Shown: one piece after another, positions 39,339 through 57,178 of the stretch
Layout: the number at the start of each line of letters is the position of its first letter
Numbering within the stretch: the first letter of the stretch is position 1
Virus record (IMG/VR): IMGVR_UViG_3300025759_000064
Span: 1-64,000 of that record
Length of the DNA: 64,000 nt
Direction: 5' to 3' (one strand)
Origin: a virus
Position numbers and translations under genes: made by a program
The notes under the pieces: model-generated
Databases searched by the model: none
Seen by the model: the letters and a program-made list of their open reading frames with translations, nothing else
Told to the model about the DNA's origin: nothing

Positions 39339-41765
39339 TTAGACACCCCCGAATGAAACCTTGACCACTTTAACTACTCTATCGGAATAGCCGTATGTCT
39401 TAGATATTCTCTCCCAATCGCCTTTAGTGTTTAATATTGTACTAACATCCATAGATGTGATGTCTAGCATTTTCGCTAAGTAAAGAATGTCTGTAATAGA
39501 ATCTACGCTTAAATTATTAGAAGGTAAATGCTTGATAATTTCATCATCTTTTCGAGCATCTTCTATTTGTAATATTTCTACTGCTTTAATTAGTCTATCC
39601 ATGGCGGCATTATGCCCATCTTTACTTTTAGTAGGATAGTCAGAAAGAAAACGTTGGTAGGGGTCACCCATATTTTGTTGAAACTCTCGTTGTCTCTGAG
39701 AAGATACTACACCAACTGGTGGTACTTGGGTTTCTCCGGGGTAAAGCACTTGCGCTTGCTGAGGATGGTATTGTGGTCGAGGTAATCTAGACATTACATT
39801 TTGTACTGTTTCAGGAGACGCATAACCAAACTTTGCTCTCATTTGTTGGTCAGGAGTTATTTTTTTATTTGCAACTAATTGACGAAAGTGTTCTGTATTT
39901 GGGTCTACTTGCAATTGTGCTCTTCTTGCAGCATCGCTTAGTGGTGGTGGCGCACCACTAGTTGCAGCCGGAGGTGCACCGCCGGAAACTGGAACAGGTG
40001 CACCGGATATACCTTTTTCTTTACCCGGTTGTGGTTTTAATGTGGTTTCTTCGGGTTGCATAGATGCGCCGACTGGTGACATAGATGATGTCATGTCTGA
40101 ATATCTAATGTGTTCTGGCACACCTAATTGCCCCCTATCTTCGTGTGTACCTCCTTGAAGTATATTGTCTACAATTGGTTGTAATTGCTGTAATTCTTCT
40201 TGTGAAGGTATTTCTTTTCTTTCATGTCCCCCCGCTATGGTGTGGCTATGAAACAAATGGTCTAGCATTATTTTTACATTAGGCGCAGCCGCTCTTGTTT
40301 CAGGAGTATCATACAATCTAATTTTTGCCGCTTTCAAATCTTCGGGCGATAAATCATCTTCTGCATGATTGATTCCCTGAGATGCTGCAAGCACAACATT
40401 ACTCCATGCGTCTTTTGCTCTATTATGATGACCTATACCTCCTCTTACTTGATGTTGCTTATACGCTTCAATTTTTTCAGTATGGCTCATAAAATGGTCA
40501 AGCCCTTTTCCTTCTTCTGCTGTATCTCCATATCTCTGCCCATATAGATGATTCATTTTTCCAACAGTTTGACCTGCTTGTTTTATACTCCCATCTTCAT
40601 TAAACTTAGGATTTCTATTTTCACCGTAAACTGCTTGAAACGCTGGAAACTGAGATAAATAATTAGCCGCTTCTAATTGTCCTTGAGGTGTTTGTAATAA
40701 TACTTTTAGCGGCTTACCGTTTATTTCACCGGGTATATTTGCTAAATGTTTCATAGCCCCTGCGCTATCAACTATCAAGTTATTAACAACCCCTTCTCTA
40801 TTTTTCCCAGTTACTAAAGCCATGTGATGAAGAAAACTATCTACTGTTTGTTTTCTTGTTTGTCTTTTTCCACCCGGTGCTGCATCAATTTGAGGTATGT
40901 AGTAAACGTTAGGATAATGATGGGCTATTCCCCAAGATGTAATATTTTGAAAGGCTCTACTATCAGGTATTCTACTACCCCATTTTAATCTTTGACTTCC
41001 GTGTAATCTATCACCATCTAATTTACCTGAGTCTATCGAATTAGCACCAAACTGCATCCCACCTTTTCCATCAGGAACTAAATGTAATCTATGTGGTTTT
41101 ACATAAGGTTTCTTTACCCAACTATGTTTTTGCGGATTAGGATGTCCCAGTTGTGCCATAACTTCTCCAAGTTGTTTATTGAAAGGTATAGCATAAGATT
41201 CTAGATAAGTGCCACTTCTATGATTATCGCCGTGTCTATTAGTATACGTTGTAATTAAATTACCATCTTGAGTATAATTACTTCTTACTCTATGGTCTTG
41301 TTCCGTTAATGGTGCTAAATGCATTTTTCTCCAACCAACGCTATCTACATTAGGTAAATGATTGTCTTCTTTATGGTTTTGATTATGCATATCTATGGCT
41401 TTTTGAATTACATCTTTTGCTGGCGCTTTTATTCCATGTTCTAACAAAGAGTCCCCAACTGCACGTATTATTCCGTCAATACCATGCATGTGTTCTCCGC
41501 CGGATTCATCAGCGTATATTTGTTCTCCATGCATACCTGTTTTCCAATCACCGGGAAAAACGTGACCCATTCCGGGCACCCCCGTTTCTTCTTCCGAGTG
41601 AGCGCCAGTGTGAGCAAACGCTGGAATATCAGGCATATTTGGGTCTCGGTTATGAGCCTCAGGCGGTGGGAATCTTAGAGGATTCATTTTACCTGCAAAT
41701 AAACTATAATTACCATCGCCCTTTCTAAGTAGAAGAGATTTCATAATTATAGAGGATTTAATCAT
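39339..41765 (-). CDS. Putative internal head protein (808 aa)
   Basis: His/Gly/Pro-rich composition like the 1,804-aa protein; C-terminal helical/HTH-like segment. Confidence 0.6.
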   Translation of the reverse strand: MIKSSIIMKSLLLRKGDGNYSLFAGKMNPLRFPPPEAHNRDPNMPDIPAFAHTGAHSEEETGVPGMGHVFPGDWKTGMHGEQIYADESGGEHMHGIDGIIRAVGDSLLEHGIKAPAKDVIQKAIDMHNQNHKEDNHLPNVDSVGWRKMHLAPLTEQDHRVRSNYTQDGNLITTYTNRHGDNHRSGTYLESYAIPFNKQLGEVMAQLGHPNPQKHSWVKKPYVKPHRLHLVPDGKGGMQFGANSIDSGKLDGDRLHGSQRLKWGSRIPDSRAFQNITSWGIAHHYPNVYYIPQIDAAPGGKRQTRKQTVDSFLHHMALVTGKNREGVVNNLIVDSAGAMKHLANIPGEINGKPLKVLLQTPQGQLEAANYLSQFPAFQAVYGENRNPKFNEDGSIKQAGQTVGKMNHLYGQRYGDTAEEGKGLDHFMSHTEKIEAYKQHQVRGGIGHHNRAKDAWSNVVLAASQGINHAEDDLSPEDLKAAKIRLYDTPETRAAAPNVKIMLDHLFHSHTIAGGHERKEIPSQEELQQLQPIVDNILQGGTHEDRGQLGVPEHIRYSDMTSSMSPVGASMQPEETTLKPQPGKEKGISGAPVPVSGGAPPAATSGAPPPLSDAARRAQLQVDPNTEHFRQLVANKKITPDQQMRAKFGYASPETVQNVMSRLPRPQYHPQQAQVLYPGETQVPPVGVVSSQRQREFQQNMGDPYQRFLSDYPTKSKDGHNAAMDRLIKAVEILQIEDARKDDEIIKHLPSNNLSVDSITDILYLAKMLDITSMDVSTILNTKGDWERISKTYGYSDRVVKVVKVSFGGV

Positions 41766-43642
41766 GGAGTTCTACCGCCTCGACTTGTTAAGTGGTCTAA
41801 AGGGTTGATTCCAAAAGTACGAGGGTCATTAGTTGCATCTTCCGTTGCACCTTCCGGCCTAGTAGTTTCTTTAGTGGGCGCATTATTATGCGCTGGTAAA
41901 TTACTAGCAGAACCTACGTTTGAATCACCTTTACCTTTTTTCTTGGTTTCTTTTCTTTTCATCGCTCTTCGAGCGTCGTTAACGAGTTGGCGAAGTTCGG
42001 CCATGTCATAGTATGATAGTCCCCGCTTTTGTAATTCGCTACCTTCTCCAACTTCACTAGTCATCACAGGTGCACCTTGTATAGCAGAACTAGGTAATCT
42101 AGGTCTGTAAGTTGGACTCTGACCGGACATACCCTGAACACCAACGCCCATTCTTGGTTGCGACATTACAGGTGGACTAGGTATACTAGGCGATGGTAAT
42201 GTAGCCCTGCGCGGTGAAGATGGGGGCATTAGTGGTGGTGGTCTAATAGACCTAAGTGCAGGTCTTCTCATTTGTTGCGCTTGTCCGGGTAGTAAACTTT
42301 GCAATGTACCACCGCCAGTCAAACCTGCTTTGTAAGAACGTGCACCGAATCTTGACGGTGTAGATGAAACGGTTCGTATGTTACCTAAACGCTTTCGTGC
42401 CTCAGATTGACCGAGGTATTGTCTGTATCTTTGTACATCTTTAGACATAGGTTGTTTAGTTTTTACACCCCTGTGAGACATTTCGACAGCAAGATGCGCT
42501 CTACTTAATCCAGTTTTCTTCCCACCAGCAATACCACGCATTCTAGCCTTGGCTCTTCTAGATGTAGCACTGCCGGGTGTCATTCCGCCCGGTGGTCTCT
42601 TGAACTCACCAGTTGAAGGTCGCCATTTCTTCTGCCTTTCTTTATGTGCTTTTCTTGCTTTTGCCCCTTTCTTTCTTTTCGGCTTTTTACCTACAAAGCC
42701 CTGTCTCTCGCTTTTGAGTAATTGAAATGCTATTTCTATGGGATTACCTTTCAAATCACCCATCATTGACTGGTCAAAAGACGGTTGTGAGTTTTTATGT
42801 TTCAACGCTTTCAGAGTAGCCATGTACATACTCATATTAATCACTGCTAAATCTTCGTGATTCATGTCGTGATAATTAGTTTGATTTCTCATATTTTGTA
42901 AAAGGTTATTAGCAGGGTCTGACAATTGCCTTGGAGCACCTCGCGGAGAACGACTCATCACCATGTAATCATGTAATAGTTTCAAATCACTTTCAGTTTC
43001 ACGCAATTGAGGCTCAAATGCCGCAACACCTTCATTGCTTCTTGTCAACTCATTTACAGCATCGTCATGGTCTTGTACCATTGGATGATTTACATTCATG
43101 TGTAAGAGTGGATATCTGTTTTCATCAAATGAGTTACCAAACATACTCATCTCATTTATATCACCATCTAAATATGACTGTAAATGTTCATCTTTGTATG
43201 CTTTTAATAATTGGAATGCTATTTCCATAGGTTCTCCCATGGCAAAGTTCTGCCCTCCGGCAAAACCCGGCCCTCTAGCCTGATTTGCTAAACTTGTAAG
43301 TGCGCCGTAATTACCCGGAGTACCAGTCATCAAAGATGGCTCTAACTCATTATCAAACTTAGTAGGTTGTAAATCTTCATCTTCATCTTCAACGGCAGGT
43401 AAGTCAGCAGTTGTAATAGAAAGATGTTTTAATCGCTTCATTTCATTTGCTCTATCTTTACGTTCTTGTTTTTTACGGTCAATACGAGCATCACGATGTT
43501 CTGTATCTTCTCCGCCGTATGCACCTTCTTCTTCGTGATTTGCGCGGAACATGTGAGAAGATTCACTTCTCGGTCCATACATTCGCGTATCGCTACCCGT
43601 ACTTGTCATACCTGATTTTAGAATACGCACAGGTTTACTCAT
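41762..43642 (-). CDS. Putative internal polyprotein with two P[M/I]EIAFQLLK motifs
   Basis: Motifs PMEIAFQLLKA and PIEIAFQLLKS separate acidic and very basic segments. Probable start MSKPVRILK at 43642. Confidence 0.65.
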   Translation of the reverse strand: MSKPVRILKSGMTSTGSDTRMYGPRSESSHMFRANHEEEGAYGGEDTEHRDARIDRKKQERKDRANEMKRLKHLSITTADLPAVEDEDEDLQPTKFDNELEPSLMTGTPGNYGALTSLANQARGPGFAGGQNFAMGEPMEIAFQLLKAYKDEHLQSYLDGDINEMSMFGNSFDENRYPLLHMNVNHPMVQDHDDAVNELTRSNEGVAAFEPQLRETESDLKLLHDYMVMSRSPRGAPRQLSDPANNLLQNMRNQTNYHDMNHEDLAVINMSMYMATLKALKHKNSQPSFDQSMMGDLKGNPIEIAFQLLKSERQGFVGKKPKRKKGAKARKAHKERQKKWRPSTGEFKRPPGGMTPGSATSRRAKARMRGIAGGKKTGLSRAHLAVEMSHRGVKTKQPMSKDVQRYRQYLGQSEARKRLGNIRTVSSTPSRFGARSYKAGLTGGGTLQSLLPGQAQQMRRPALRSIRPPPLMPPSSPRRATLPSPSIPSPPVMSQPRMGVGVQGMSGQSPTYRPRLPSSAIQGAPVMTSEVGEGSELQKRGLSYYDMAELRQLVNDARRAMKRKETKKKGKGDSNVGSASNLPAHNNAPTKETTRPEGATEDATNDPRTFGINPLDHLTSRGGRTP

Positions 43643-44039
43643 GTTGAACCCCCGCAAAATTAAATGACGTTAACATAACAAGTTTTCCGATATTACGATA
43701 AAACAAAGGAACGGTAGATGGGGTAGTAAACTTTGTACCCATTTCTTCACAGTGTTCTAAATAATTATAGCAACTATGACGTATTTGTTCTCTTAACGGT
43801 AAAACAATTTCAGGTTCATCAGTATCATCTAATTGTTTCACACATTCTATAATATGCATTAAACTATCTTCATTAACTAGGACATTGGCTTCTTTGAATG
43901 CATGGTATCTAAAACGTTCTGTTACCTTGACACAATAATCAAAGAACAAAGGATATTGTGATTTTTCCATATTTTCACCCGATAAGAATGAAAGATAGCC
44001 CGGATGCTGTGTTTGCATTAAATCAACCACAGGTATCAC
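43635..44039 (-). CDS. Hypothetical protein (134 aa)
   Basis: Coupled ORF in the operon. Confidence 0.6.
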   Translation of the reverse strand: MIPVVDLMQTQHPGYLSFLSGENMEKSQYPLFFDYCVKVTERFRYHAFKEANVLVNEDSLMHIIECVKQLDDTDEPEIVLPLREQIRHSCYNYLEHCEEMGTKFTTPSTVPLFYRNIGKLVMLTSFNFAGVQHE

Positions 44040-44719
44040 AGCACTTCCTCCATCTCTGCTTGTAATTTACTTTTAATTCTCTTCCAACTATCAGGACTTT
44101 CTTTTGCAAGTTCAACTTTTAGAATATTGATAGTTTGATTAACTTGTGTACCATCTGTTTGTGTACCCCATTTATCTTGAAAGCCAGTTAAATCTTTTAT
44201 TGATTCTCTTACTTCTTTATGTAAAGTAACTGCATTTCTTACAAAGCCTTCTTCATGCACACTACCTTCTTCCATCAATTCAGACAACTTGTTGTTTAAT
44301 TTTTCAACATTGCTTCTTAAAACAGTTATTTCATTTCCAACCGTAATTGCGACCTCAGTTGCTGCTGACCTTTGAACCAACGGCTGAAAGTGATGTTTCA
44401 TGTGATGATACACAGTAGTCTCCTTAATACCTAGTTCTTCTGCAATTAATTCAGATTGAGTACCATCGGAAAAGAATCGATTTTCATATTCTGCTCTATT
44501 CTCACTTGAACAAATTACGCAAGAAGGGTTTGCGGCCATATGGTATTGACCCATGTGATTACGGTAATGTCGGTCAGCAGTATTAGCCCTCCAACCCATA
44601 TCTTTATCCAACTGTTCACAGGATATTTCGCCACTTTTGATGGCCTCCTCAAGCACACTTCTGTCGTCACTTTGACAGAACGCGCATGAACGTTTCATAA
44701 CTGGCTCTCGCTCAACCAT
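44036..44719 (-). CDS. Putative terminase small subunit (227 aa)
   Basis: Two tandem CxxC...HTH...HxxxH units, then a coiled coil and C-terminal strand (QVNQTINIL). Upstream of terL. Confidence 0.55.
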   Translation of the reverse strand: MVEREPVMKRSCAFCQSDDRSVLEEAIKSGEISCEQLDKDMGWRANTADRHYRNHMGQYHMAANPSCVICSSENRAEYENRFFSDGTQSELIAEELGIKETTVYHHMKHHFQPLVQRSAATEVAITVGNEITVLRSNVEKLNNKLSELMEEGSVHEEGFVRNAVTLHKEVRESIKDLTGFQDKWGTQTDGTQVNQTINILKVELAKESPDSWKRIKSKLQAEMEEVL

Positions 44720-44755
44720 GTGTGACCGGAATACTATGTGGTTAATCAGGGTTGC

Positions 44756-45016
44756 TTAGATAAACCGCGTTATTCTCTGATATATAGAGGTCAAGAGTAT
44801 AAAGGAAAAAAATACTCCCACCATATACATTGACATTTCTGATTGGCTAATATCAGCATTCTTGAATATTAAAATCCCCATGAACACAAGTATAGCACTA
44901 ATGAGTTGTACCATTACCATATCTACTATAACTTCTCTTTTTGGAGCAAGCATGTGCATTGACATATCTGCTATTTGTCTAGGTACTGGTACACCGAAAT
45001 TATTACTACCCATCAT
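44756..45016 (-). CDS. Small 2-TM membrane protein (86 aa)
   Basis: Two hydrophobic stretches: MVMVQLISAILVFMGILIF and MYMVGVFFSFILLTSIY. Confidence 0.75.
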   Translation of the reverse strand: MMGSNNFGVPVPRQIADMSMHMLAPKREVIVDMVMVQLISAILVFMGILIFKNADISQSEMSMYMVGVFFSFILLTSIYQRITRFI

Positions 45017-45660
45017 TATACTCTACCTCCTGTGAGGAAATTACGGAAGAAAGTACCACTACCTTGCGCTACGTTATTTATCAATCCGGGGTCTGCTAAT
45101 GCATTTGTTAATTGACTTTGTAGCATACTTTGTTGAGCATTTTGCAACGTTTGTTGTCTTTGATTATCTGCTTGTGCTATGGTTTGATTTACCATATTAG
45201 TCATAGAGTTCATTTGTGACATTACGTTTTCAGAACTCATAGTCTGTAACTCTGTTGGTAAACTAGCCACATCTAATTTGAATATTCCATTCTCTTCATC
45301 AAAAGTGTAATTAGCATTTTTTAACACATTTAGTAAAGAAAAAGTGTTTATCTGACTAATAACATCTAACAGCATAGGAAATAATTGTGATTGAAGAAAT
45401 CTCTCCACAGGGTAAGAAGTGTTTAACATCGTTAACAAAATCTCTGTATCACTAGGTGGTACAATGGCTTGTTGATTGTAAGGGTCTTGACCAGTAGCAC
45501 CCGCCCACGCTGCGCTTAGAGCACTCGGTTGCTGAGGTTGTTGATACCATTGTTGCGGTGGAGCGGTATATCCACTACCGTAATTTGTGTTAGGCGCTCC
45601 AGTTTGACTTAGATTAAGTGCGCTAGAAGCGGGTTGTTGATTATTCCAATTCATTGTCAT
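45016..45660 (-). CDS. Gln/Asn-rich protein with coiled coil and C-terminal amphipathic helix (214 aa)
   Basis: QQP-rich N-terminus, Q/M-rich helix, ends in GTFFRNFLTGG. Confidence 0.7.
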   Translation of the reverse strand: MTMNWNNQQPASSALNLSQTGAPNTNYGSGYTAPPQQWYQQPQQPSALSAAWAGATGQDPYNQQAIVPPSDTEILLTMLNTSYPVERFLQSQLFPMLLDVISQINTFSLLNVLKNANYTFDEENGIFKLDVASLPTELQTMSSENVMSQMNSMTNMVNQTIAQADNQRQQTLQNAQQSMLQSQLTNALADPGLINNVAQGSGTFFRNFLTGGRV

Positions 45661-46625
45661 TGCATACCCTCCAACACTGCTTCCGGTATCAACGGAGGGG
45701 GGTTTATGGTTTGAGCCTGTTGGTTTAGAATATCTTGGAATGCAATGTTAGGCGTAGTCATATCTCTAAGTTCTTTTTGAAACATTCTCATATCAAAAGT
45801 AATTGTCGTAATATCATTATCGCCGCTAACTGGATTAACGTAATGTTGCATTGTAATACCTTTACTTTTTCTTACATCTGCTGAAATCTCAGCAAAGAAA
45901 GGTTCGTATTTAGTAATCATAGGATGTATTGGACCTGTCTGCCCAGCAGTAATAGTAGAAACTGGTACAGTAACTATACTGACTCCTCTTTTTATCTTAT
46001 CACGAAATCGACTAGGTTTCATTTCATCTTCAACATCTTGCTGTTCTTCCCATTTACAAAGTAAATGATACAAATGTAAATGTTCAGGACAATAAGTTGC
46101 TCTCATTTTTCTACCACTTGTTACTCCTTCTCTTGCTATGAATGCTTCTGCCTCACCTGTAACTGGATTTTGCCAGTACATATCCCATAGAGTTTTACCA
46201 GTATCTTCATCACTTATTCTAGAATATAAATTATCATGTTGTATTAATTCTTTTACATTACATCCATCAACACAACAGACAGCAGTATCTTTGTTATACA
46301 TATATTTGCTGTGACGGAATAATCTACGAGGGTCAAATATGGAGCGTTTTGTTGGGCTTAATAATTTGTAAGCCTGACGAATATCTTGTTTTCTTGCTTT
46401 GTAAGGATTAGCGTGCCTCGATGGATAGAAGTTAACCTTAGGCACTTCTATGTTCTTTTCCATAGACATTCTTTGCATCTGTTGTTGTGCTGCTGCTTGT
46501 TCCATTAGAGCAGCATGACTAAAATTAGGATTACCTTGTTGTGATAAAGCCATTAATGTAGCATCATTCACTTGACCTAGATTCGGTTGCTGCTGAGAAT
46601 AAAACGGATTCATGTTCATTACCAT
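45657..46625 (-). CDS. Hypothetical protein with Gln-rich N-terminus and Cys/His ligands (~322 aa)
   Basis: CCVDGC...YCPEH. Start moved to ATG 46625 (GGAGTGA RBS), downstream of the AbrB ORF. Confidence 0.7.
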   Translation of the reverse strand: MVMNMNPFYSQQQPNLGQVNDATLMALSQQGNPNFSHAALMEQAAAQQQMQRMSMEKNIEVPKVNFYPSRHANPYKARKQDIRQAYKLLSPTKRSIFDPRRLFRHSKYMYNKDTAVCCVDGCNVKELIQHDNLYSRISDEDTGKTLWDMYWQNPVTGEAEAFIAREGVTSGRKMRATYCPEHLHLYHLLCKWEEQQDVEDEMKPSRFRDKIKRGVSIVTVPVSTITAGQTGPIHPMITKYEPFFAEISADVRKSKGITMQHYVNPVSGDNDITTITFDMRMFQKELRDMTTPNIAFQDILNQQAQTINPPPLIPEAVLEGMQ

Positions 46626-46630
46626 GCGTA

Positions 46631-46810
46631 TCACTCCTGTGGGCTTACTGAAATAGACATTTCGCCATCTTTTACTATTAATGACCACTCTATTTTAGAG
46701 CCAGCAGACAAACCAAATTGCTCTACTATCCACATAGGAATAGTAGTTCTAAGAGAATTACTAGAGCCTCCTGTGGAGACTAAGGCTGTTGTCGACGTGC
46801 CCTTACCCAT
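46631..46810 (-). CDS. AbrB/MazE/SpoVT-family DNA-binding protein (59 aa; not in ORF track)
   Basis: MGKGTSTTALVSTGGSSNSLRTTIPMWIVEQFGLSAGSKIEWSLIVKDGEMSISVSPQE; SLRTTIPxxIVxxFGLxxGxxIEW is the archaeal swapped-hairpin signature. Confidence 0.8.
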   Translation of the reverse strand: MGKGTSTTALVSTGGSSNSLRTTIPMWIVEQFGLSAGSKIEWSLIVKDGEMSISVSPQE

Positions 46811-46852
46811 GTCTCTCGCACACCCTACTCATCTAAAAGGTCACTGTTGAGG

Positions 46853-47578: not shown

Positions 47579-47862
47579 CTAAACTTATTTGTTAACCATG
47601 TTCCAAAGTCTGCTACTTTTTGATATACCCATTCAACTGTCATTTCCCATAAGTTCCAATCTGTATTGGCTTCCATTGCAGAAACAGCCATTGCTGCACC
47701 GACAGAACATAATATTGTTCTAATCCAACCCAGTCCCCATTCGTAGGTATTATCTACTGTATTTGCTAAATGCATAGCACGCAGTGTTTCTTCAACTGAA
47801 TCATCACCAACATTGCGAAAAATACGCAATGGAGAAGGAATTAACTGTCCGGGTAGTACCAT
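47575..47862 (-). CDS. Small membrane-associated protein (95 aa)
   Basis: Hydrophobic WIRTILCSVGAAMAVSAM plus Trp-rich amphipathic C-terminus; ATGA overlap with the GTPase. Confidence 0.7.
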   Translation of the reverse strand: MVLPGQLIPSPLRIFRNVGDDSVEETLRAMHLANTVDNTYEWGLGWIRTILCSVGAAMAVSAMEANTDWNLWEMTVEWVYQKVADFGTWLTNKFS

Positions 47863-48539: not shown

Positions 48540-48659
48540 ACTGTGACCTCGCTCTAGCCCACGGTGGGGGTCATCTTAAGCCTTATCTGTCCGAATATTC
48601 TAATGTCTTGTATATACATAAAGAATAATATGTACTATTGTATAGATAGACAATCGGAA

Positions 48660-49136
48660 TCATCGGACAGGCCATATACCTTCAGGTGCATATTTTTGCC
48701 ACATAGATTGAGCCTCAGGTGATTGGTCATTATCAGGGGTTAATGTTTGGTCATAATTAGATAACACTTCTGCCATAGTATCATAGAGATTTTTAGCATA
48801 TCCTCTTTGTCGATAAGGTTGTTCTGTTCTCGCATTCATAACACTGGTAGTGTTTCTATCGCCTAAAGTTCTAGCATTCATTCTATTCCTATCACTAATA
48901 TTCCCAGCGATATTTAATCTAGGTCGTGTTCTTTTCAAAGGTTTACCAAAATAAGTTCCACCGTTTTCTCGCCTTCTAACATCTATGTCTGTTTGTAATA
49001 TTTCATTAGTAACAGGGTCTTGAAAATCAGCAGCCCACGTATCGTGTTCGCCTGATGGTTCAGATGTTACTCTTCTTAATGAATCGGGAATCATAGGCGC
49101 TTTGAGCACAATCCACGCTTGGTCGAAGGCGGTCAT
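48660..49136 (-). CDS. Leader-bearing GNAT-like acetyltransferase (158 aa)
   Basis: MTAFDQAWIVLK leader; motif A TEQPYRQRGYAKNLY; DQSPEAQSMW. Confidence 0.7.
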   Translation of the reverse strand: MTAFDQAWIVLKAPMIPDSLRRVTSEPSGEHDTWAADFQDPVTNEILQTDIDVRRRENGGTYFGKPLKRTRPRLNIAGNISDRNRMNARTLGDRNTTSVMNARTEQPYRQRGYAKNLYDTMAEVLSNYDQTLTPDNDQSPEAQSMWQKYAPEGIWPVR

Positions 49137-49351
49137 TGATTATCACTCCACCAAGTATCTACTTCAGGGTCATTCATCAAATCTTCATTAAAATAATAGA
49201 AATGCTTCTTGTAACAATCATCACATAACATTCTTGGAAAATCAACGCCATCATCAAGTGTATGATTCTGACTGTTTAACAAAGCACCACAATGTGAACA
49301 AGCGCCCACTTCTAATTTTAGCAAAGCCCACGCTTGGTCGAAGGGGTTCAT
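49133..49351 (-). CDS. Leader-bearing Zn-finger protein (72 aa)
   Basis: MNPFDQAWALLK leader; CSHC...CDDC. Confidence 0.7.
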   Translation of the reverse strand: MNPFDQAWALLKLEVGACSHCGALLNSQNHTLDDGVDFPRMLCDDCYKKHFYYFNEDLMNDPEVDTWWSDNQ

Positions 49352-49710
49352 CAGCAGTTCCACCGTTTGAGCGCTGCGCCCTTCGGTGTTAGTTTTCCAC
49401 CTTTACTGGTCGGTCCTTTGCTCCCACCCATTCTAGCACAGAATGACTTTCTTCTGTTTGCCGCTTTACTACCGGGTTTTAGTGAACTTGGTTTTTTAGT
49501 AACAGGTCTTTTCAAGTTTGCACCTGTCTCTCGCTTGAACTTTGCACGCCCTTTTGCATTTAGACCACCACTTCTGCTATGCCTGTTTGGATTGTAACCG
49601 TGAAATGGTTTTGATTTCTTTTTTGCTTTTTCAAACACAGAATCTAACAGTGCTACTGATGCTTGTTGCATAGGTGTGCAACAGTCACATGTGTCAAATC
49701 CCATAGTCAC
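49351..49710 (-). CDS. Small basic protein (119 aa; recalled as DUF6321-like)
   Basis: GGLNAKGRAKFKRETGANLKRPV...RRKSFCARMGG resembles a widespread marine-virus family. Family name from memory, not searched. Confidence 0.65.
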   Translation of the reverse strand: MTMGFDTCDCCTPMQQASVALLDSVFEKAKKKSKPFHGYNPNRHSRSGGLNAKGRAKFKRETGANLKRPVTKKPSSLKPGSKAANRRKSFCARMGGSKGPTSKGGKLTPKGAALKRWNC

Positions 49711-50015
49711 CGTAACACACCCACCATCTTAACAATTGTTGGCTTTCCGCCCACACCTTGCTTTTTTGCACGTTTTCTTTTTGTTGCTGCTTGCTTCTGA
49801 CCTGATGACATAGAACCTGATGTTTTTGGCGTTTTGCTTGAAACCTTGATTGATGGTCTGCATTTAGGATAACCTTTACTAGATTTATTTGCTTTACTTC
49901 TACCACACGGAGGATGCTTACCATCTTTAGTACGCGACACATCTACCCATTTTTCTTTGAACCAGCGATTTAGGTTCTTAACTACAAGAGTATCATGGCA
50001 AGTACATCGTGTCAT
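49707..50015 (-). CDS. Small basic protein (102 aa; recalled as DUF5872-like)
   Basis: LNRWFKEKWVDV...CGR...YPKCRP motif. Family name from memory, not searched. Confidence 0.65.
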   Translation of the reverse strand: MTRCTCHDTLVVKNLNRWFKEKWVDVSRTKDGKHPPCGRSKANKSSKGYPKCRPSIKVSSKTPKTSGSMSSGQKQAATKRKRAKKQGVGGKPTIVKMVGVLR

Positions 50016-50173
50016 ACTACTCCTACCATTTTCTTAATACTCTTTTGTTTATCCATCAATGCGTAACAAGGACATTTAGGAGCGGATGCTGAACATTGAT
50101 TACCCTCAATCATACAAACGCAAGGCGTTTTACTAGTAGCCCCGCAACAACATTTGTCTTTCTTAAGTTTCAT
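50012..50173 (-). CDS. Cys-rich small protein (53 aa; not in ORF track)
   Basis: MKLKKDKCCCGATSKTPCVCMIEGNQCSASAPKCPCYALMDKQKSIKKMVGVV; ATGA overlaps on both sides. Confidence 0.65.
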   Translation of the reverse strand: MKLKKDKCCCGATSKTPCVCMIEGNQCSASAPKCPCYALMDKQKSIKKMVGVV

Positions 50174-50340
50174 TTTTTCTTTTTCCCCTTAAACTTACCA
50201 CGACAATATTGAACAGCCCACCCGTTTGCATACGCAGATGGGTAAACATCGAACTTTTTCTTTGCGGCTGCTTTTCCAGCAGGGCATAGTTTTTTCCAAA
50301 CCGCATCCATACCAACACAATGACCGCATTCGCAACTCAT
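50170..50340 (-). CDS. Small basic protein with YPSAYA motif (56 aa; not in ORF track)
   Basis: MSCECGHCVGMDAVWKKLCPAGKAAAKKKFDVYPSAYANGWAVQYCRGKFKGKKKK; ATGA overlaps. Confidence 0.7.
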   Translation of the reverse strand: MSCECGHCVGMDAVWKKLCPAGKAAAKKKFDVYPSAYANGWAVQYCRGKFKGKKKK

Positions 50341-51902
50341 TTTTTCACCTTAACCCTGCGAAGTGTACCTTTATTTTTGAAATGCCTTGCTCTATTTGAG
50401 TGTGCACTCTCTAAAGTTAATTTTCCACCTTGCGTGTGGCTGACATCTTTACCACCTTTTCCGTATATGCCCCGCTTCCTACGCTCTGTGTTTAATTGCT
50501 CACGATACTTTACACGCTTAGGTGTCTTTTGATATTGCTTGTCATACTCTAATTTGTGAGCAAATGCTGCTGGCGACTTGCGCTCTTTGAGCAACTGATA
50601 GGCTATGTCCATTGGTTCGCTGGCTAGTTTCCGATTTTTCCACTCAAAACGGGTAGTATATTCAGGATGGTCTTCGGGAAGCAACGACATTGGAGGACGT
50701 TCTTTACTTGGCTCAAGCCGTCTATATTCATTTTCAAAATGTCGTCTGTTCTCCCTTTTTTGTTTTTCATAATACCTATTGAACTCCTTTATTGAATCCC
50801 AATAGTCTTGTTCATTATAATCTTTTATATTTCCATATCCGTATAATCTTTCAGAGCCTTCATCTCGCTCGTATGGTTGGATATTGCTGAAATAATCATA
50901 TAACATATTTTCATCCATATCTTCGTCTTCCTGAATATTTTTAAGCAACTGGAGGGCTATGTCCATTGGACTACCTTTAGTCAATTCGTAGATTTCATCT
51001 TTAGTTTTACCATAAAATAAATTATGTAACTCATCTGCATCCATATCTTCTATCTTTTTTCGTTTAATCGGCTTACCCCAAGGTAAAGGTTTGTCGCTCC
51101 ATCTACTAATTCGGCCACTTGGCCTTCTGTCTGTATTACTAATATTACGACCTAAATTGGGAGTGCCCATCTCTAGTGTTTCGTCTTTATAATGTCGTCG
51201 CAATGGTACTTCAACTAAACTTTCACGTGGAATATTTTCATCATGCTCAATAAACGCTTCTGCTAAATCTTCTTTTGCTTCGTCACTATCTCTTCTGTGC
51301 ACTTTTCCGTATTTATCAAGATTTCCACGTACATAAACTAACTTATCGGGGGCATTATGGGTGTATAAATTATTAATATCTCCCATTGTATTATTTGAAA
51401 CCCAAGTTCCAGCCTTTGCATTTTTTAATCCAGCGAAAAGTTTTCGCGCGCGGGGATGATACTTACCATCTCTATGCGCACCTGCCATATAATACGGTAC
51501 ATTTGATATAGGGTCTTTCCTCCATCTCGAATTAGGGTCTTCCCAAACAGGGTCATTATCATGGGGTATTTCAGGAATCAGTGGTGGAAGTCTTGGGTCA
51601 CCTTCTTCATAGTTTATATTAGAGCCATCTTGCGGTACAGGTTCTCCCGCAGGTCTATGCGCCCCTTGTACACGAACAGCCCTAACGGGGTCCCATCCTT
51701 CCCAACCAGTTGTGTAATCTAATCTAGGGTCATGCATTGGCAACTTTGTTTGATAATTATTTTCAATTGTGTACTCCGGGTGATTTGGAAACAATTGCGC
51801 TCTTCTCGCTTGTTCCATCATATCCATATATTCTTTCGATTCTTTAATAGCCTCTTCATCTTCTAACGATTTTAGAAAAGCCCAAGATTTGTTAAACACC
51901 AT
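50337..51902 (-). CDS. Leader-punctuated polyprotein (~521 aa): possible ART-like domain, acidic segment, HNH-like basic domain
   Basis: Start MVFNKSWAFLK; internal PMDIALQLLK and PMDIAYQLLK; C-terminal GKDVSH...ESAHSNRARH. Confidence 0.65.
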   Translation of the reverse strand: MVFNKSWAFLKSLEDEEAIKESKEYMDMMEQARRAQLFPNHPEYTIENNYQTKLPMHDPRLDYTTGWEGWDPVRAVRVQGAHRPAGEPVPQDGSNINYEEGDPRLPPLIPEIPHDNDPVWEDPNSRWRKDPISNVPYYMAGAHRDGKYHPRARKLFAGLKNAKAGTWVSNNTMGDINNLYTHNAPDKLVYVRGNLDKYGKVHRRDSDEAKEDLAEAFIEHDENIPRESLVEVPLRRHYKDETLEMGTPNLGRNISNTDRRPSGRISRWSDKPLPWGKPIKRKKIEDMDADELHNLFYGKTKDEIYELTKGSPMDIALQLLKNIQEDEDMDENMLYDYFSNIQPYERDEGSERLYGYGNIKDYNEQDYWDSIKEFNRYYEKQKRENRRHFENEYRRLEPSKERPPMSLLPEDHPEYTTRFEWKNRKLASEPMDIAYQLLKERKSPAAFAHKLEYDKQYQKTPKRVKYREQLNTERRKRGIYGKGGKDVSHTQGGKLTLESAHSNRARHFKNKGTLRRVKVKK

Positions 51903-51903
51903 T

Positions 51904-52122
51904 CTAAATCCATCCTGATGTCCTCTTTGATTGTTGTGTCTTAGGTTGTGACGTAGGTTGAGGCGGATTGGCTTGCATATTTCTTTTAGCATCTGCGTTT
52001 TTAGCCATTATCATGTCTTGTAGAGACATAAAGCGACCTGAGCCGGGAGGATATTCGTGCATATCAATGGGGTCTGCTTTGAGAAATTGCCAAGCCTCAT
52101 TGAATGCGGTCAACCCAATCAC
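51904..52122 (-). CDS. Leader-bearing small protein (72 aa)
   Basis: TAFNEAWQFLK leader. Confidence 0.65.
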   Translation of the reverse strand: MIGLTAFNEAWQFLKADPIDMHEYPPGSGRFMSLQDMIMAKNADAKRNMQANPPQPTSQPKTQQSKRTSGWI

Positions 52123-53264
52123 CTATTTGCAAAAACATCTTTTGGCATACGAGGTCTTGGTTTGTTAGGGTCTGCAAATCGTGGGTCACCCGGTCTAGGC
52201 GCACCACGTGGTTTTCGCATTTCAGGCATACCTTCCGCCATTATTGCAGCCCGTTCCGCTTCATTCATTTCCGCTTGGCGTGCATCTTCATCACCAAACT
52301 CAGGTTTACCGTATGGCGGTCCTAAATCTTCCCCATCATATTCAGGAAAACCTTCATCATCGTATCTACTTGGACCGGGCATACTATCTCTAGTGTAATT
52401 ATTCGCCCCTTTTCTATGTAAATCTTCGTCTATAAAACGTTGAGGAGACATATCAGGAAGATTTCGTGCTCTGACGTGTTCGGGTAAATTAGATATTCTA
52501 AAGTTTTGCTTCAACATTTCAAATGCTTTTTGCATAGGTTTACCCCTGCCGGGGATTCGATGTAGCATTTTTGAATTGATAAGTTCTTGTAATTTTGCCT
52601 CACTTGCTGCTCTTTTACCAAGTTTAGTGTTTTTTAACGCTTCTTGCAAAAATGGGGCATAATCATCCTTAAAATCCCGCACCTCTTTATTAGTTGGGTG
52701 TGTTTGTTGGTATGAGTAAGATTGTGGTGCTTTGGTTCTTCTTTGGTTATCTTTGTTAGCATAAGCATTCATTTGGTCCATAGGGTCATCTACACTTCCA
52801 TATGGCATACTATCGGCGTAGTACTCAGGGTGCATATCTAACGTTGGGGTTTTACCATCACGGTAATCTAATGCACTTTCATTTGCACGAAGATTCAGAT
52901 TTGGCAAGTCTGCATTTTCGTCATTATAACTACCTGATGTCAAATGGGGGTTTTCTTTCATGCGCCTCTGCATCATCCCATATATCGCAGGGTGTATAGT
53001 ACCCGCACCCTCTTGCCTCTCTCCGACATCAGGGCCTTCTCCTTGGTAAGTGATTTCTGCTAGATTGGCTCTGTCATAAGCAGGTTCAAACATTTGATGC
53101 TCAGGTAGCGCTTTCAAGGTCTGCCACGATTTCTTCATAGGCATAGAGCCGTATTTCTTCATGTTCGGTGTAGCGGCATCGGTGGGCTTAGTTTTCATTT
53201 TTGGCCCAATGCTGATAATTACAGCAACGCCCTTTTTCTTTTTCTTGTCTTTCATTTTAATCAC
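52119..53264 (-). CDS. Leader-punctuated low-complexity protein (381 aa)
   Basis: Internal PMKKSWQTLK and PMQKAFEMLK. Confidence 0.65.
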   Translation of the reverse strand: MIKMKDKKKKKGVAVIISIGPKMKTKPTDAATPNMKKYGSMPMKKSWQTLKALPEHQMFEPAYDRANLAEITYQGEGPDVGERQEGAGTIHPAIYGMMQRRMKENPHLTSGSYNDENADLPNLNLRANESALDYRDGKTPTLDMHPEYYADSMPYGSVDDPMDQMNAYANKDNQRRTKAPQSYSYQQTHPTNKEVRDFKDDYAPFLQEALKNTKLGKRAASEAKLQELINSKMLHRIPGRGKPMQKAFEMLKQNFRISNLPEHVRARNLPDMSPQRFIDEDLHRKGANNYTRDSMPGPSRYDDEGFPEYDGEDLGPPYGKPEFGDEDARQAEMNEAERAAIMAEGMPEMRKPRGAPRPGDPRFADPNKPRPRMPKDVFANR

Positions 53265-53266
53265 TT

Positions 53267-53614
53267 TTAATTTTGATATTGTGGATTATTTTGCTGGTAC
53301 GGTGGCCTTTCATGCTCAAATGGGTTTCTTTTAGCCTCAAATGGTTTGGGTTGATGAGGTTGGTAAGGGTTGTAAGGTAGGTTGTTATCATTTGGATTAC
53401 CTTGTCCGTATGGCGCATTTTGCTTCATTCTCTCCATGTACTCGTCCAAAGTTCGCTGTTTACCTTCTTTTGATGGAGAGGGGGCGTAAGGGTTAGGTTG
53501 AGGATTATTTCGGTAAGGTTGGTTAGATGGATTGGAAGGCATTGCTCGGTGGTATAAATAATTCGGGTTAGGTGCGCTTTTCAAAAACGTCCACGCTGTT
53601 TCAAATGCTGTCAT
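53267..53614 (-). CDS. Leader-bearing Pro/Asn/Gln/Tyr-rich protein (115 aa)
   Basis: MTAFETAWTFLK leader; NPY/QPY repeats. Confidence 0.65.
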   Translation of the reverse strand: MTAFETAWTFLKSAPNPNYLYHRAMPSNPSNQPYRNNPQPNPYAPSPSKEGKQRTLDEYMERMKQNAPYGQGNPNDNNLPYNPYQPHQPKPFEAKRNPFEHERPPYQQNNPQYQN

Positions 53615-53883
53615 TCTCCTTGACCCCCTCTAAATGACTCAAACCATTCGGGATGGTTCTGTCTGTAAAAATCAATTATTTTAGCATCTTCTTCGTGGTC
53701 ATCTATTTTTTCACGTAATTTTGAAGCCTTTTGCTTCTTTTTACGGCTATCAGACCTTGTTTTACCAGTTTGATTCAGTGCCTCTTCCATGTAACTTGGC
53801 ATATCGTGCTGCATAGCAACTTGAGAGGAGGGGGACATTTTTAGCACATTTATTGCTGCATCTATTGGATTCATTTTATTCAC
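53611..53883 (-). CDS. Leader-variant small protein (90 aa)
   Basis: MNPIDAAINVLK. Confidence 0.6.
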   Translation of the reverse strand: MNKMNPIDAAINVLKMSPSSQVAMQHDMPSYMEEALNQTGKTRSDSRKKKQKASKLREKIDDHEEDAKIIDFYRQNHPEWFESFRGGQGE

Positions 53884-54055
53884 CTTTTACGCATCGGCGT
53901 GGTAACTACGTGCACCGCTAGTAATGCGATATGTCTAATATGTTACGCTCTATCCTGAGGGCGTGGTGGCTTCCATTCCGCAGGGTCAAGTTGTTGTAAG
54001 TTCTTCTTCTTTCCACATTCATTACCTCAAAAAAAATAAGCAGACTGGTGGGAAT

Positions 54056-54679
54056 ATGGAAGTCACCGCACCTGTTTTGGTTACTAAAGGCGTAGGAGAA
54101 ACAGCGCTAAACTTGGGCGCTCTTGCACTTGCACCATTTACTGGTGGTATGTCGGCAGTTGCCTTAGGAGCAGCAAGAGGCGCACAGGCATTGAGAGCGG
54201 TAAAAGCAGCAAAAGGTGCAAAAACTGCCGTAGGAACTACTCAAGCCGCTAAAACTACTGCTGGTAAAGTTGCAGTTAAAGACCCAATGGCTATGGCAAA
54301 CGCAAGACATGCAGAGCAAATAGCAGAGGCTGGTGAAAGCGGAGGTAGATTAGGTCAATTGCGAAGTAGAGCAGTAACACCAACGGCGGCAGAAGAATTA
54401 GAGGCTGCAACTTCAAATCAAGCAAGAATGAAAGATATAGCAAGCACTACTGATGCAGCAGCAGAAGCGGAAAAAAATCTTGCCGAATTACATGAGCAAC
54501 AAAAAACTGCAACAGATACAGCAGGGGCTGCTGCTGTTGTGGGAGTACAAGGCACAAACGCTGCCGCACAACAAAAACAGGCACAACAAAAAGCCGAAAT
54601 GGAAAGAATAGAAGGATTAGCGGAAGATGCTAGGTCAAAAGCCAGCACCGGAACTGGTGGGAAGGTAGCGGTGGCATGA
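54056..54679 (+). CDS. Ala-rich protein with hydrophobic LALAPFTGG segment (~207 aa); putative ejection/pilot protein
   Basis: Probable start ATG 54056 (GGTGGG RBS); hydrophobic Gly/Ala helix followed by a coiled coil; opposite strand to neighbours. Confidence 0.65.
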   Translation: MEVTAPVLVTKGVGETALNLGALALAPFTGGMSAVALGAARGAQALRAVKAAKGAKTAVGTTQAAKTTAGKVAVKDPMAMANARHAEQIAEAGESGGRLGQLRSRAVTPTAAEELEAATSNQARMKDIASTTDAAAEAEKNLAELHEQQKTATDTAGAAAVVGVQGTNAAAQQKQAQQKAEMERIEGLAEDARSKASTGTGGKVAVA

Positions 54680-54789
54680 TTGCCATGGCTCTAAAAGGCT
54701 ACATTAAACTGCAATTAGCCCAAATGATACAGCATTTGATTGTCGGCTTAGGACTTGTAGTTGTAGTTACTGTTATACTTTTATCTTAG
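54676..54789 (+). CDS. Small single-TM peptide (37 aa; not in ORF track)
   Basis: ATGA overlap; MIAMALKGYIKLQLAQMIQHLIVGLGLVVVVTVILLS; overlaps the 3' end of the lyase gene by 17 nt. Confidence 0.4.
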   Translation: MIAMALKGYIKLQLAQMIQHLIVGLGLVVVVTVILLS

Positions 54790-55621
54790 TATTTACAAAC
54801 TTGACTAGCGGTTCTAAGTCTTTAAGCGTAACACCACAATCAAGATTCTCTCTATCAGCCCAGTGTACTAACTGTTCTGTGGCTAAATTGCCCCCTGAGC
54901 CGGGTACAAACGGGCAACCGCCCATTCCTCCAATGCTAGAATCGAACTGTGTGATGCCGCAATCGAAGCCAGCAGACAGATTATCGTACATTCTGCCCTC
55001 TCTTACACCGTGATGTAGGTGCAATGCGATATTTGCATCTATCTTTCTGTCAGTTAAACGCATTACTTTGCGTATCATCGATGGGTTAGCATTACCTATG
55101 GTGTCAGACAAAACTATTGTATCGCCTAAGGTATTTGCCCATTCCATGGTTTTTAGCATGTCTTTTGGCGGTATTTCGCCCATAATCGGGCATCCAAAAG
55201 ATGTAGAAAGGTAAACTCTGACGTTTTTGGTCGGTATTCTGTCTAATGCGCCACTGTATTCAGCAAAAATTGTGTTTAGGTTTTTACCTAAGTTATTGAC
55301 ATTGAAGTAGTTTGACGGTGAGAAAAAAATATTATATTTTTCTACACCAACAGACTTTGCCCTTTCAACACCCACACGGTTTGGCACTAACATACCCAAG
55401 TTGTGCGTAGAGGCTAAATCTTGCACTTTGAGGAATACTACTTCGCTATCAGCCATATTTGGAACTCTGTCAGGATTGACCATTGAGCCAATTTCAATAT
55501 TTTTGATACCCGTATTTGCAATTTTACGTATCAAAGTCACCTTATCGTGCGTAGATGTGATTGTATCTGCGCTCTGCAACCCATCGCGTGGTCCTACTTC
55601 GTAGATTGAAAAGTCGCTCAT
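54773..55621 (-). CDS. hmgL: Hydroxymethylglutaryl-CoA lyase (DRE-TIM metallolyase), auxiliary metabolic gene
   Basis: EVGPRDGLQ, FGCP, DTIG, metal-binding HLH, DSSIGGMGGCPF and GNLATE. Start MSDF at 55621 (TAATG overlap). Confidence 0.9.
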   Translation of the reverse strand: MSDFSIYEVGPRDGLQSADTITSTHDKVTLIRKIANTGIKNIEIGSMVNPDRVPNMADSEVVFLKVQDLASTHNLGMLVPNRVGVERAKSVGVEKYNIFFSPSNYFNVNNLGKNLNTIFAEYSGALDRIPTKNVRVYLSTSFGCPIMGEIPPKDMLKTMEWANTLGDTIVLSDTIGNANPSMIRKVMRLTDRKIDANIALHLHHGVREGRMYDNLSAGFDCGITQFDSSIGGMGGCPFVPGSGGNLATEQLVHWADRENLDCGVTLKDLEPLVKFVNTKIKV

Positions 55622-56280
55622 TATTCTGTCTCCCAATCCCACATATCGGGTCTTTCAGTTTCACCAACACCCCCACCGTAAGCCAAATCTTTAATGTCTC
55701 TCGGCACATTGCCCCAAGTAGATTCATCATGCCAATTCATTGGCTGCCCTACGTTTTTACCCTGTCTCATCATAACTAATCGGTGCGGGTCAATCGCCTC
55801 ATGGATAAGCCCTTCAGGAAATCCTTCAGGACTTTGTTTTGCGTTCCTCCACTGCGCATCGAGATTTTTCGCGCCCTCAGGTGTCATACGAATCCCAACC
55901 ATTGAATGTCCCATTCCTTTTCCACTAGGCGTAGCACCAGCGTATGCGGGTGTAACATTACGAAAATCGGGTTTAGTCACCCAAAATCCTTTACCCCCAC
56001 CACGTGTAGTATCAAACTTTTTGTCATTTTTACCAGCCATTACATCTTCCCATTGCGAATTATCTTCTCCATAACCACGGTTTGCGTTTTGCGGCAAAGG
56101 CTGCAAACCTCGATTATCAATATCTTGCATATATTCGCTCGGTACAACACGCATCATCGACATCGGCCCAGCCCGACTAGGAAAATCTGCATGGTATTGA
56201 CCCAAGGTAGTTTGGTCAGGGTGCAATTCAGGATACAAAGGTGACTTTAGAACAGCCCATGCTTGGTCAAAGGGGTTCAT
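55621..56280 (-). CDS. Leader-bearing protein with possible ADP-ribosyltransferase-like fold (~219 aa)
   Basis: MNPFDQAWAVLK leader; MMRVV...IDNRGLQP...GFWVT...EGLIHEAIDPHRL pattern recalls Tpt1/ART-type domains. Confidence 0.5.
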   Translation of the reverse strand: MNPFDQAWAVLKSPLYPELHPDQTTLGQYHADFPSRAGPMSMMRVVPSEYMQDIDNRGLQPLPQNANRGYGEDNSQWEDVMAGKNDKKFDTTRGGGKGFWVTKPDFRNVTPAYAGATPSGKGMGHSMVGIRMTPEGAKNLDAQWRNAKQSPEGFPEGLIHEAIDPHRLVMMRQGKNVGQPMNWHDESTWGNVPRDIKDLAYGGGVGETERPDMWDWETE

Positions 56281-56648
56281 TGTTGACCCTCCCGATTCGC
56301 CCAAAAACCCTCAGCATCCTCGCTCTGCATGTGATTAGTGTTCTGCACAGTAAGTCCAGTAATTTTCTCAGCGTGGTTGTACATGTCCGTGGCTATACCC
56401 CCTCTCCGAAAACTCGGATGCGTGTAACTAGCCAAAGGAATCAAGTTACCGTCAGCCACTGAAAACTTTGCATAACCATATTTTATGGGCTTTTGGTCGT
56501 ATTTATCCAAACCCTGTATGGCCGCAACCTGTAAATTACCATGTTTATCGTATTCATGCTGCAACGAGAAATCTTCGGGGTCTCCGTAGTAAGGGAAATC
56601 CGGTTTAGGCATTTTGAGTACAGCCCACGCTCGGTCGAAGGCAGTCAT
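56277..56648 (-). CDS. Leader-bearing GNAT-like acetyltransferase (123 aa)
   Basis: MTAFDRAWAVLK leader; THPSFRRGGIATDMY; QSEDAEGFW. Confidence 0.75.
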   Translation of the reverse strand: MTAFDRAWAVLKMPKPDFPYYGDPEDFSLQHEYDKHGNLQVAAIQGLDKYDQKPIKYGYAKFSVADGNLIPLASYTHPSFRRGGIATDMYNHAEKITGLTVQNTNHMQSEDAEGFWANREGQQ

Positions 56649-57178
56649 TCATGCACCCCATCATACGGCCAACGTAGTCTTATCCCTCTATAATCATCTT
56701 GAAACTTAGTGTGAGCAGAACGCCTCTCATCTCCCTCATACGGCAATTCCATGTGTTTTGCCCAAAATGGGGCTGAGGATGCGCTTAACTGACTCGGAAA
56801 TGTCGTTAGCCTAGCATTTTTCTTCTTCGCCATCTCATTCGCCAAATTATAAACACCCGTCATCAAACCTCTTCTTCTGTAACCCTCTCTAGTTTTTGCA
56901 TGAGAAGTTTTCCATTCAGGGCCATAATGCTCGCTAATATGATTAACAGCAAGCGGTTTTCCATCATTATCCATAATTCTTGTATTTAGCCCATACATAT
57001 CATATTCCGACACCATTGGATAGATTTTGTTTGTTTGAGGGTCTTGAAATTGTGCTTCCATCCCACCGTCTTGTACGTCAGCCTCCTTAATGGGGTCCCA
57101 CCCTTCTATTTCTTTAATTGAGCCGGGGATTATCGGCATCTTGAGTATAGCCCACGCAATGTCGAATGCGTTTACCAT
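56645..57178 (-). CDS. Leader-bearing GNAT-like acetyltransferase (~177 aa)
   Basis: MVNAFDIAWAILK leader; TREGYRRRGLMTGVY; shares PxIPxS...AxFQDPxTNxI with 48660..49136. Confidence 0.7.
   Translation of the reverse strand: MVNAFDIAWAILKMPIIPGSIKEIEGWDPIKEADVQDGGMEAQFQDPQTNKIYPMVSEYDMYGLNTRIMDNDGKPLAVNHISEHYGPEWKTSHAKTREGYRRRGLMTGVYNLANEMAKKKNARLTTFPSQLSASSAPFWAKHMELPYEGDERRSAHTKFQDDYRGIRLRWPYDGVHE

Follow-up and report, generated by a model that had tools for sequence, protein, structure and literature searches.

A portable helical peptide tag on unrelated proteins of a putative group A magrovirus, with the procapsid interior as its candidate docking site

The IMG/VR virus record IMGVR_UViG_3300025759_000064 is a single virus contig of 110,919 bp carrying approximately 116 genes, and its first 64 kb (positions 1 to 64,000, hereafter the window) encode a series of otherwise different proteins that share one short peptide. 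The core of this peptide comprises nine residues, [F/M]-[D/E]-x-A-[W/F/Y]-x-[L/V]-L-K. The motif is position-independent, is conserved at the protein level and changes in concert across its carriers, and we regard it as very probably a dedicated docking tag. Whether the capsid is its destination is an evenly balanced question. With moderate confidence, the best overall explanation is a portable docking tag whose most likely partner lies in the procapsid interior. From its gene content we infer that the virus is a group A magrovirus; the published description of these viruses, which are assigned to Marine Group II (Poseidoniales) archaea, has a matching gene set (PMC5434244).

A strict regular expression for the core, applied to the whole genome, identified 15 copies compared with 0.77 expected from shuffled sequences. 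All 15 are minus-strand copies located from 42,739 to 57,166 and are in the frame of real open reading frames (ORFs). Nine are N-terminal, in agreement with a preliminary description of this DNA, which had reported at least nine adjacent genes beginning with the same peptide and had placed each of them correctly. The other six, absent from that description, are internal, two each in ORFs of 631, 521 and 381 residues. Seven of the proposed gene starts were retained, and two were moved: 52122 to a TTG at 52113 (yielding M-TAFNEAWQFLK) and 53883 to an ATG at 53874. A 16th copy, MTIHDAWALLK, begins a 222-residue kinase-like ORF (K222) in the replication block, outside the window (genome 81154-81822). 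Altogether, 12 of the approximately 116 genes (~10%) carry the motif. The tagged genes and their associated small genes in the window are as follows.

56645..57178, minus strand: A177, tag MVNAFDIAWAILK, core 57140-57166; paralogue of N158
56277..56648, minus strand: B123, tag MTAFDRAWAVLK, core 56613-56639; weak GNAT-like matches
55621..56280, minus strand: C219, tag MNPFDQAWAVLK, core 56245-56271; orphan
53611..53874, minus strand: D87, atypical tag MNPIDAAINVLK, core 53839-53865; canonical tags in orthologues
53267..53614, minus strand: E115, low-complexity protein, tag MTAFETAWTFLK, core 53579-53605
52119..53264, minus strand: F381, internal tags MPMKKSWQTLK (core 53112-53138) and KPMQKAFEMLK (core 52509-52535)
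51904..52113, minus strand: G69, disordered, TTG start, tag MTAFNEAWQFLK, core 52078-52104
50337..51902, minus strand: H521, three tag-plus-module units in a string, cores 51870-51896, 50940-50966 and 50586-50612
49351..50340, minus strand: I56, J53, K102 (DUF5872) and L119 (DUF6321), four small basic/Cys-rich genes
49133..49351, minus strand: M72, Zn-ribbon-like, tag MNPFDQAWALLK, core 49316-49342
48660..49136, minus strand: N158, tag MTAFDQAWIVLK, core 49101-49127; paralogue of A177
41762..43657, minus strand: W631, a long, disordered and basic protein; two internal tags with cores at 43202-43228 and 42713-42739
38673..39338, minus strand: Y221, Gly-rich, directly upstream of the terminase gene; tag degenerate here

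The tag occurs in two related forms, M-[N/T/S]-[P/A]-F-D-x-A-W-x-[L/V/F]-L-K at N-termini and [G/S]-E-P-M-[D/E]-I-A-[F/W/Y]-[Q/R]-L-L-K at internal and C-terminal sites. Hardly any variation is seen at Ala3, Leu7 and Lys8 or in the aromatic character of position 4, and in an alpha-helix positions 0, 3, 4 and 7 point to the same side. In an AlphaFold2 model of A177 that is otherwise of low confidence, residues 4-13 are helical (predicted local distance difference test, pLDDT, ~71-77). The residue following the Lys varies, being A, M, S or E at N-termini and E (the commonest), A or D internally. This pattern is typical of helical short linear motifs that dock in a hydrophobic groove. When the nine N-terminal copies are compared with one another, identical residues are encoded by different codons in 81 of 194 pairs (42%), and each copy is preceded by its own Shine-Dalgarno-like sequence; selection has therefore acted on the protein, and the motif is neither a DNA repeat nor a recombination site.

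For comparison across related viruses, 240 loci were retrieved from IMG/VR with three anchors, namely the terminase, the major capsid protein (MCP) and the GTPase encoded at 46853-47578. A 13-position profile was built from the 16 copies in this genome and applied at a threshold of at least 8 bits, with reversed sequences serving as the decoy; in this genome, scores below 10 bits are at decoy level. The 240 loci together with this genome yielded 420 matches, against one in the decoy. After deduplication, 291 copies remained, including the 16 from this genome: 165 were N-terminal, 110 internal and 13 C-terminal, with the rest in tiny ORFs. In the relatives, ~98% of the unique copies that could be classified (260/266) lie on the structural-gene strand, and single-linkage clustering of 266 tagged proteins, with the tag masked, gave 93 clusters. 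In five relatives that are 94-100% complete, the minimal DNA pattern for A-W-x-x-L-K matched 34 times, compared with none in the reversed control; these matches are mostly clustered upstream of the terminase gene, with one or two more distant.

On sequence comparison, the tag and its cargo move as one unit. In 33 cases, the module behind an internal tag aligns, from the first residue past the Lys, to a stand-alone gene of another genome tagged at its N-terminus. H521 (its basic C-terminal module) and F381 (its first module) provide examples of modules found in both states, as does a W631-type module, and the MPMKKSWQTLK tag of F381 stands N-terminally in a relative. One relative (L218) encodes a string of the form X, tag, A177-like module, tag, basic module. 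The last module of H521, a basic domain (phrog_6437), is a stand-alone tagged gene in relatives and is untagged in cyanophages (Syn5 gp50 and others), where the alignment starts just behind the tag, indicating that the tag is a lineage-specific add-on. Degenerate tags of I56 and L119 are complete in relatives, and relatives of Y221 carry a C-terminal tag, ending ...EPMELAFRLLKSVMR.

To delimit the distribution of the tag, a DNA pattern for P-F-D-Q-A-W-x-x-L-K was searched, giving 38 matches on 24 IMG/VR contigs, which encode a related terminase wherever this was checked. In 596 Gb of prokaryote genomes, the same pattern, covering the canonical but not looser or variant forms, returned two matches, about the number estimated for chance, both bacterial and outside any ORF. 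For the canonical form, the tag was accordingly not found in cellular genomes, and mimicry of a host motif is unlikely. On one of the matching contigs, the terminase shares just 46% identity with that of this genome, and the 80 relatives of this contig define a second clade. A relaxed pattern found 85 copies in clade 2 against none in the decoy, and a narrower one 56 against none, all 56 on the terminase strand. V accounts for 51%, A for 29% and L for 7% of the residues at position 7 in the 85 clade 2 copies, whereas L accounts for 94% in the 231 copies that this relaxed pattern found in clade 1. Such a concerted change over dozens of unrelated genes is expected if all of them fit one partner that differs between the clades. 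The preliminary description of a modular tag on unrelated cargo is thus upheld by protein-level selection, the 93 clusters, position independence, virus restriction and the concerted clade change.

The identity of the cargo is less clear-cut. That the sequences behind the tag are mostly unrelated holds, with the exception of A177 and N158, which are paralogues sharing 29% identity. On a first-lines reading, the clusters include an HD-hydrolase-like protein, Zn-ribbons, Gly-rich proteins, small basic proteins of the DUF6321 and DUF5872-like types and many orphans. Scanning the tagged proteins against Pfam and PHROG produced hardly any family matches, and a homologue search with C219 found two near-identical proteins and no others. 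Three GNATs and ART-like domains had been proposed. The GNAT label reduces to sub-threshold Pfam matches for B123, and the ART-like label to a weak Atlas lead at most. Both assignments are unconfirmed because the C219 model is unusable (pLDDT 30) and the A177 model is weak (AlphaFold2, pLDDT 58), with no match at E<0.1 in a Foldseek search against PDB. DUF6321 is found, in addition, at the C-terminal end of PHROG families whose members are much longer. A third short motif, H-P-A-I-x-G-[L/M]-M-x-R, recurs in several otherwise different tagged proteins, including that at 52119-53264 and proteins of relatives.

Across the whole contig, the plus strand encodes a thermosome subunit, an SNF2 helicase, a family-B DNA polymerase and an RFC-like clamp loader, whereas the head-tail module lies on the minus strand, as listed below.

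37195-38676, minus strand: terminase
34232-35962, minus strand: portal
26086-27465, minus strand: prohead serine protease of the S78 family in fusion with the scaffold; candidate for the processing enzyme and for the receptor
24881-26050, minus strand: SU10-type MCP (PF17236), a candidate receptor; residues 31-38 read ELLK-ADSP and are a candidate cleavage site

Several indirect observations link the tag to head assembly. The tagged genes are tightly packed, with many 4-bp overlaps; they share a strand with the terminase and head genes and lie upstream of the block formed by terminase, portal, protease and MCP. In clade 2, they stand just upstream of the terminase gene and also between the portal and protease-scaffold genes. 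Eleven plus-strand copies (0-1 mismatch) of a 23-bp element whose core is TATA-like, TTGACTATATAAACCGAGATTGA, lie between 57.7 and 94.9 kb, at window positions 57733, 59142 and 60639 and then at genome 64674-94874, each just upstream of a replication-block gene. The element is likely, on the basis of sequence and placement, an archaeal TATA-type promoter of one temporal class. No copy occurs in the minus-strand structural and tag block, placing the tag cluster in a different regulatory class from the replication genes. In the closest relative, with ~91% DNA identity in the flanks, three tag blocks align over 7-53% of their length and the neighboring blocks fully; internal-protein loci of T-even phages are likewise hypervariable between conserved flanks (PMC3012670). 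Contigs of four metatranscriptome runs cover parts of the tag cluster and of the replication block; as contigs, they hold neither timing nor level and permit no conclusion on early or late expression.

Hints of cleavage after the Lys come from the protease, the scaffold, the MCP and the module borders. The S78 protease domain (PF04586, E=2.8e-9, residues 23-178 of ORF 26086-27465) is encoded beside the MCP and fused to the scaffold. The reported richness of the scaffold in hydrophobic-x-K-[S/A/G] sites is a real enrichment, with 13 sites in the protease-scaffold protein compared with 3.5 expected. The sequences ...GILK-G and ...FSILK-E border the protease domain on its two sides, and at the place of the former a hydrophobic-hydrophobic-K is retained in clade 2. 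The SELLK-A noted in the MCP's N-terminal arm is also present, as SELLK-ADSP, and is invariant in 70 relatives, with K-A-D-x-P conserved across 126 diverse SU10-type MCPs. Searches of solved structures with the MCP and the protease returned the cyanophage Mic1 MCP (6j3q) alone, whose sequence is without the first ~35 residues, giving a weak hint that the first ~35 residues of the MCP are a propeptide. The SU10 paper contains no statement on MCP cleavage. Lastly, homology between fused and stand-alone modules begins exactly past the Lys.

These data fit a mechanism in which the tag would be a portable, virus-encoded short linear motif forming one amphipathic helix, the hydrophobic face of which (positions 0, 3, 4 and 7) would dock on one common partner. 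It would work at the N-terminus, internally or at the C-terminus and would travel with its cargo as a "tag + module" unit, such units being shuffled, fused into strings and quickly replaced. The most likely partner would be a component of the procapsid interior, either the scaffold-protease or the MCP. In this way the head may incorporate tagged enzymes and basic disordered and Gly-rich proteins, in the manner of T4 internal proteins with their capsid-targeting sequence (CTS), and a cut by the S78 prohead protease behind the terminal Lys may then release N-terminal tags and break up strings. In its most extended and tentative form, the proposal is that magroviruses, which rank with the most abundant archaeal viruses in the surface ocean, use a nine-residue, position-independent code to load dozens of rapidly exchanged modules, including protease-cut strings, into the capsid for delivery with the DNA into Poseidoniales, the code and its capsid receptor co-evolving between clades.

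Several findings weigh against this mechanism. Copies of TTGACTATATAAACCGAGATTGA stand on both sides of K222, within the replication block. No magrovirus virion proteome was found that would place tagged proteins in virions. A divergent thermosome is encoded in 10 of 10 complete genomes examined, from both clades, and is a possible alternative partner. The term "effectors" for the cargo is a guess, since most cargo functions have no assignment. As to cleavage, just 2-10 residues remain past the Lys in C-terminal tags, the residue past the Lys is unconstrained, with E the commonest in internal copies, and in a co-variation test the clade 2 MCP keeps LLK where the tags became VVK or VAK. The earlier proposal that the tag loads cargo into the head has only indirect support, from strand, the lack of the early-type promoter, clade 2 gene position and hypervariability, set against K222. 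Cleavage after the Lys is possible but somewhat doubtful on sequence evidence, with module borders, the S78 protease and the scaffold sites on one side and the C-terminal copies, the variable P1' residue and the unchanged MCP LLK on the other. A complex prediction of the MCP, the protease-scaffold and the first 40 residues of G69, each with an alignment and run with no controls, scored 0.00, which speaks neither for nor against binding.

The strongest rival, which we nevertheless consider unlikely, holds that the tag docks its carriers on a hub other than the capsid, either the viral thermosome, in the manner of client recruitment, or a host protein, and that the carriers act in the infected cell and are not packaged. 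Helical faces of the F...W..L type are a generic protein-docking device, as in the p53 peptide bound to MDM2. A thermosome is present in every complete genome of both clades, that of clade 2 is 35-40% identical to the one encoded here, in parallel with the change in the tag, and one tagged gene, K222, belongs to the replication block. However, a chaperonin is unlikely to have tiny Zn-ribbons, long disordered basic proteins or Gly-rich proteins as clients, its classical client, the MCP, carries no tag, and the tagged genes cluster with the head-morphogenesis module and in clade 2 lie inside it. A copied host motif is not indicated either, as the canonical N-terminal tag was not found in the prokaryote genomes scanned for that form.

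It is improbable that the motif is mainly a processing signal at which a viral or host protease cuts strings and removes leaders, with no packaging role. The S78 protease, the K-rich scaffold pattern and the onset of fused/stand-alone homology exactly past the Lys would fit such a signal, as would the better conservation of internal copies (G/S-E-P-M-D-I-A-F-Q-L-L-K) than of N-terminal ones. Yet ~165 copies stand at the very N-terminus, where a cut would remove merely 11-13 residues, and C-terminal copies have 2-10 residues past the Lys. Nine conserved positions forming a helical face also exceed what a protease usually reads, and the residue past the Lys is unconstrained.

More improbable still is an amphipathic membrane-targeting helix that takes proteins to the host membrane, possibly together with the neighboring Arf-like GTPase and membrane proteins. 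The peptide is short, amphipathic and contains Trp or Phe, and two membrane proteins and a small GTPase are encoded nearby (46853-48539), but the near-invariant Ala3, position-4 aromatic residue, Leu7 and Lys8 and the clade-wide change at position 7 point to a specific protein pocket and not to lipid. With an acidic residue and one basic residue, the tag helix is also unlike known membrane-targeting helices. Duplication leftovers or chance, with no common function, can practically be dismissed: A177 and N158 are true paralogues, but the counts are far above chance, the bodies behind the tag are unrelated and form 93 clusters, the tag is kept while the terminase drops to 46% identity, and synonymous codons vary.

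Taking the tag as a docking motif for the procapsid interior, the closest functional parallel is the T4 CTS, which directs internal proteins to the scaffolding core and is then removed by the prohead protease (PMC3012670). Both systems place a short N-terminal peptide (in T4 on IPI, IPII, IPIII and Alt) on unrelated, fast-evolving proteins encoded in hypervariable loci. Their sequences are unrelated, however; the motif described here, F-D-x-A-W-x-L-L-K, ends in Lys, and the sole head protease found is a Peptidase_S78. The T4 prohead protease is of a different type from S78 and cuts after Glu. Moreover, this virus is archaeal, and its tag is also internal and C-terminal and marks module borders in polyprotein-like strings. 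By this comparison the system would work most like the T4 CTS without being a member of that family.

For the HK97 maturation protease, which is of the S78 family, Duda et al. (2013, cited in PMC12749128) are said to have described a short C-terminal segment that addresses the protein into the HK97-fold procapsid. The protease family is thus the same, but the HK97 signal resides on the protease itself rather than on a cargo repertoire, and the sequences are dissimilar. Encapsulin cargo-loading peptides are likewise short and conserved, occur on diverse cargo at either end and bind the inner face of an HK97-fold shell. Encapsulins, in contrast, are cellular nanocompartments without DNA, their motif is Gly/Ser-rich and ...LTVGSLK-like, and shell binding is only a candidate property of the tag. 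The giant phages phiKZ and SPN3US have propeptide-bearing ejection and inner-body proteins: at a short consensus, their prohead protease processes many proteins of the head interior, cutting some at several sites (PMC7411985, PMC10052503). That consensus is a cleavage site after Glu in paralogous families, whereas the tag is a nine-residue helical docking motif on unrelated cargo. As the preliminary description had supposed, the literature on magroviruses and archaeal tailed viruses yielded no description of such a tag.

If the tag does address proteins to the virion, it would mark the injected "first-strike" proteins of uncultured, globally abundant archaeal viruses and would allow candidate host-takeover and anti-defence proteins to be listed from sequence, free of culture, with more than 90 cargo clusters added by the relatives. 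As far as we found, it would also be the first system for addressing cargo to be described in a tailed virus of archaea, extending a principle of T4 and the encapsulins to another branch of HK97-fold particles. A position-independent tag and tag-module strings could provide a packaging handle for engineering. Even with a partner outside the capsid, a virus-wide docking code with clade-specific variants represents a tractable interaction.

Additional features were recorded in and around the head module. A second common peptide, M-S-W-[D/E]-[D/E]-[I/V]-H-x-[L/M]-A, ends both the protease-scaffold (26086-26130) and a 115-residue protein (33472-33520) encoded by the ORF at 33472-33819, between the portal and an 1820-residue ORF. 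Its 117 copies in relatives are all C-terminal, and clade 2 scaffolds end otherwise, in ...DGW[K/R]A.E[D/E]LARRA; from its placement, the peptide may be the capsid-binding end of two scaffold-like proteins. The 1820-residue ORF (27511-32973), between the portal region and the protease, has a long, His-rich N-terminal part and a weak ATP-dependent DNA-ligase-domain match near its C-terminus, and its gene position suggests a head-internal protein. A giant ORF at 2-15205 (>5068 residues, running past the window start) and a 759-residue ORF beside the MCP (18566-20845) have in common a segment of ~65 residues, ...CDYNNDPTITMD...SSITNSTTFELSASTTGG.... Between the terminase and portal genes, a 380-residue ORF (35964-37106) contains the LAGLIDADG-like motif FLDADGYI and is possibly a homing endonuclease gene inserted into the head module.

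Near and within the tag cluster, the small GTPase at 46853-47578 has a P-loop and a weak Roc/Arf-like Pfam match and lies behind two membrane proteins (47575-48539). It is conserved in 179 related contigs with 63-98% identity, making it a good anchor gene. An untagged HMGL-like (HMG-CoA-lyase-like) metabolic gene (54773-55642, E=8e-27) is located in the middle of the cluster. Finally, an imperfect palindromic element of ~70 nt, TTCCGAT...TATCTATACA...AATATTCGGA, occurs in two intergenic regions of opposite blocks, at 48540-48659 and at genome ~94900-94990.

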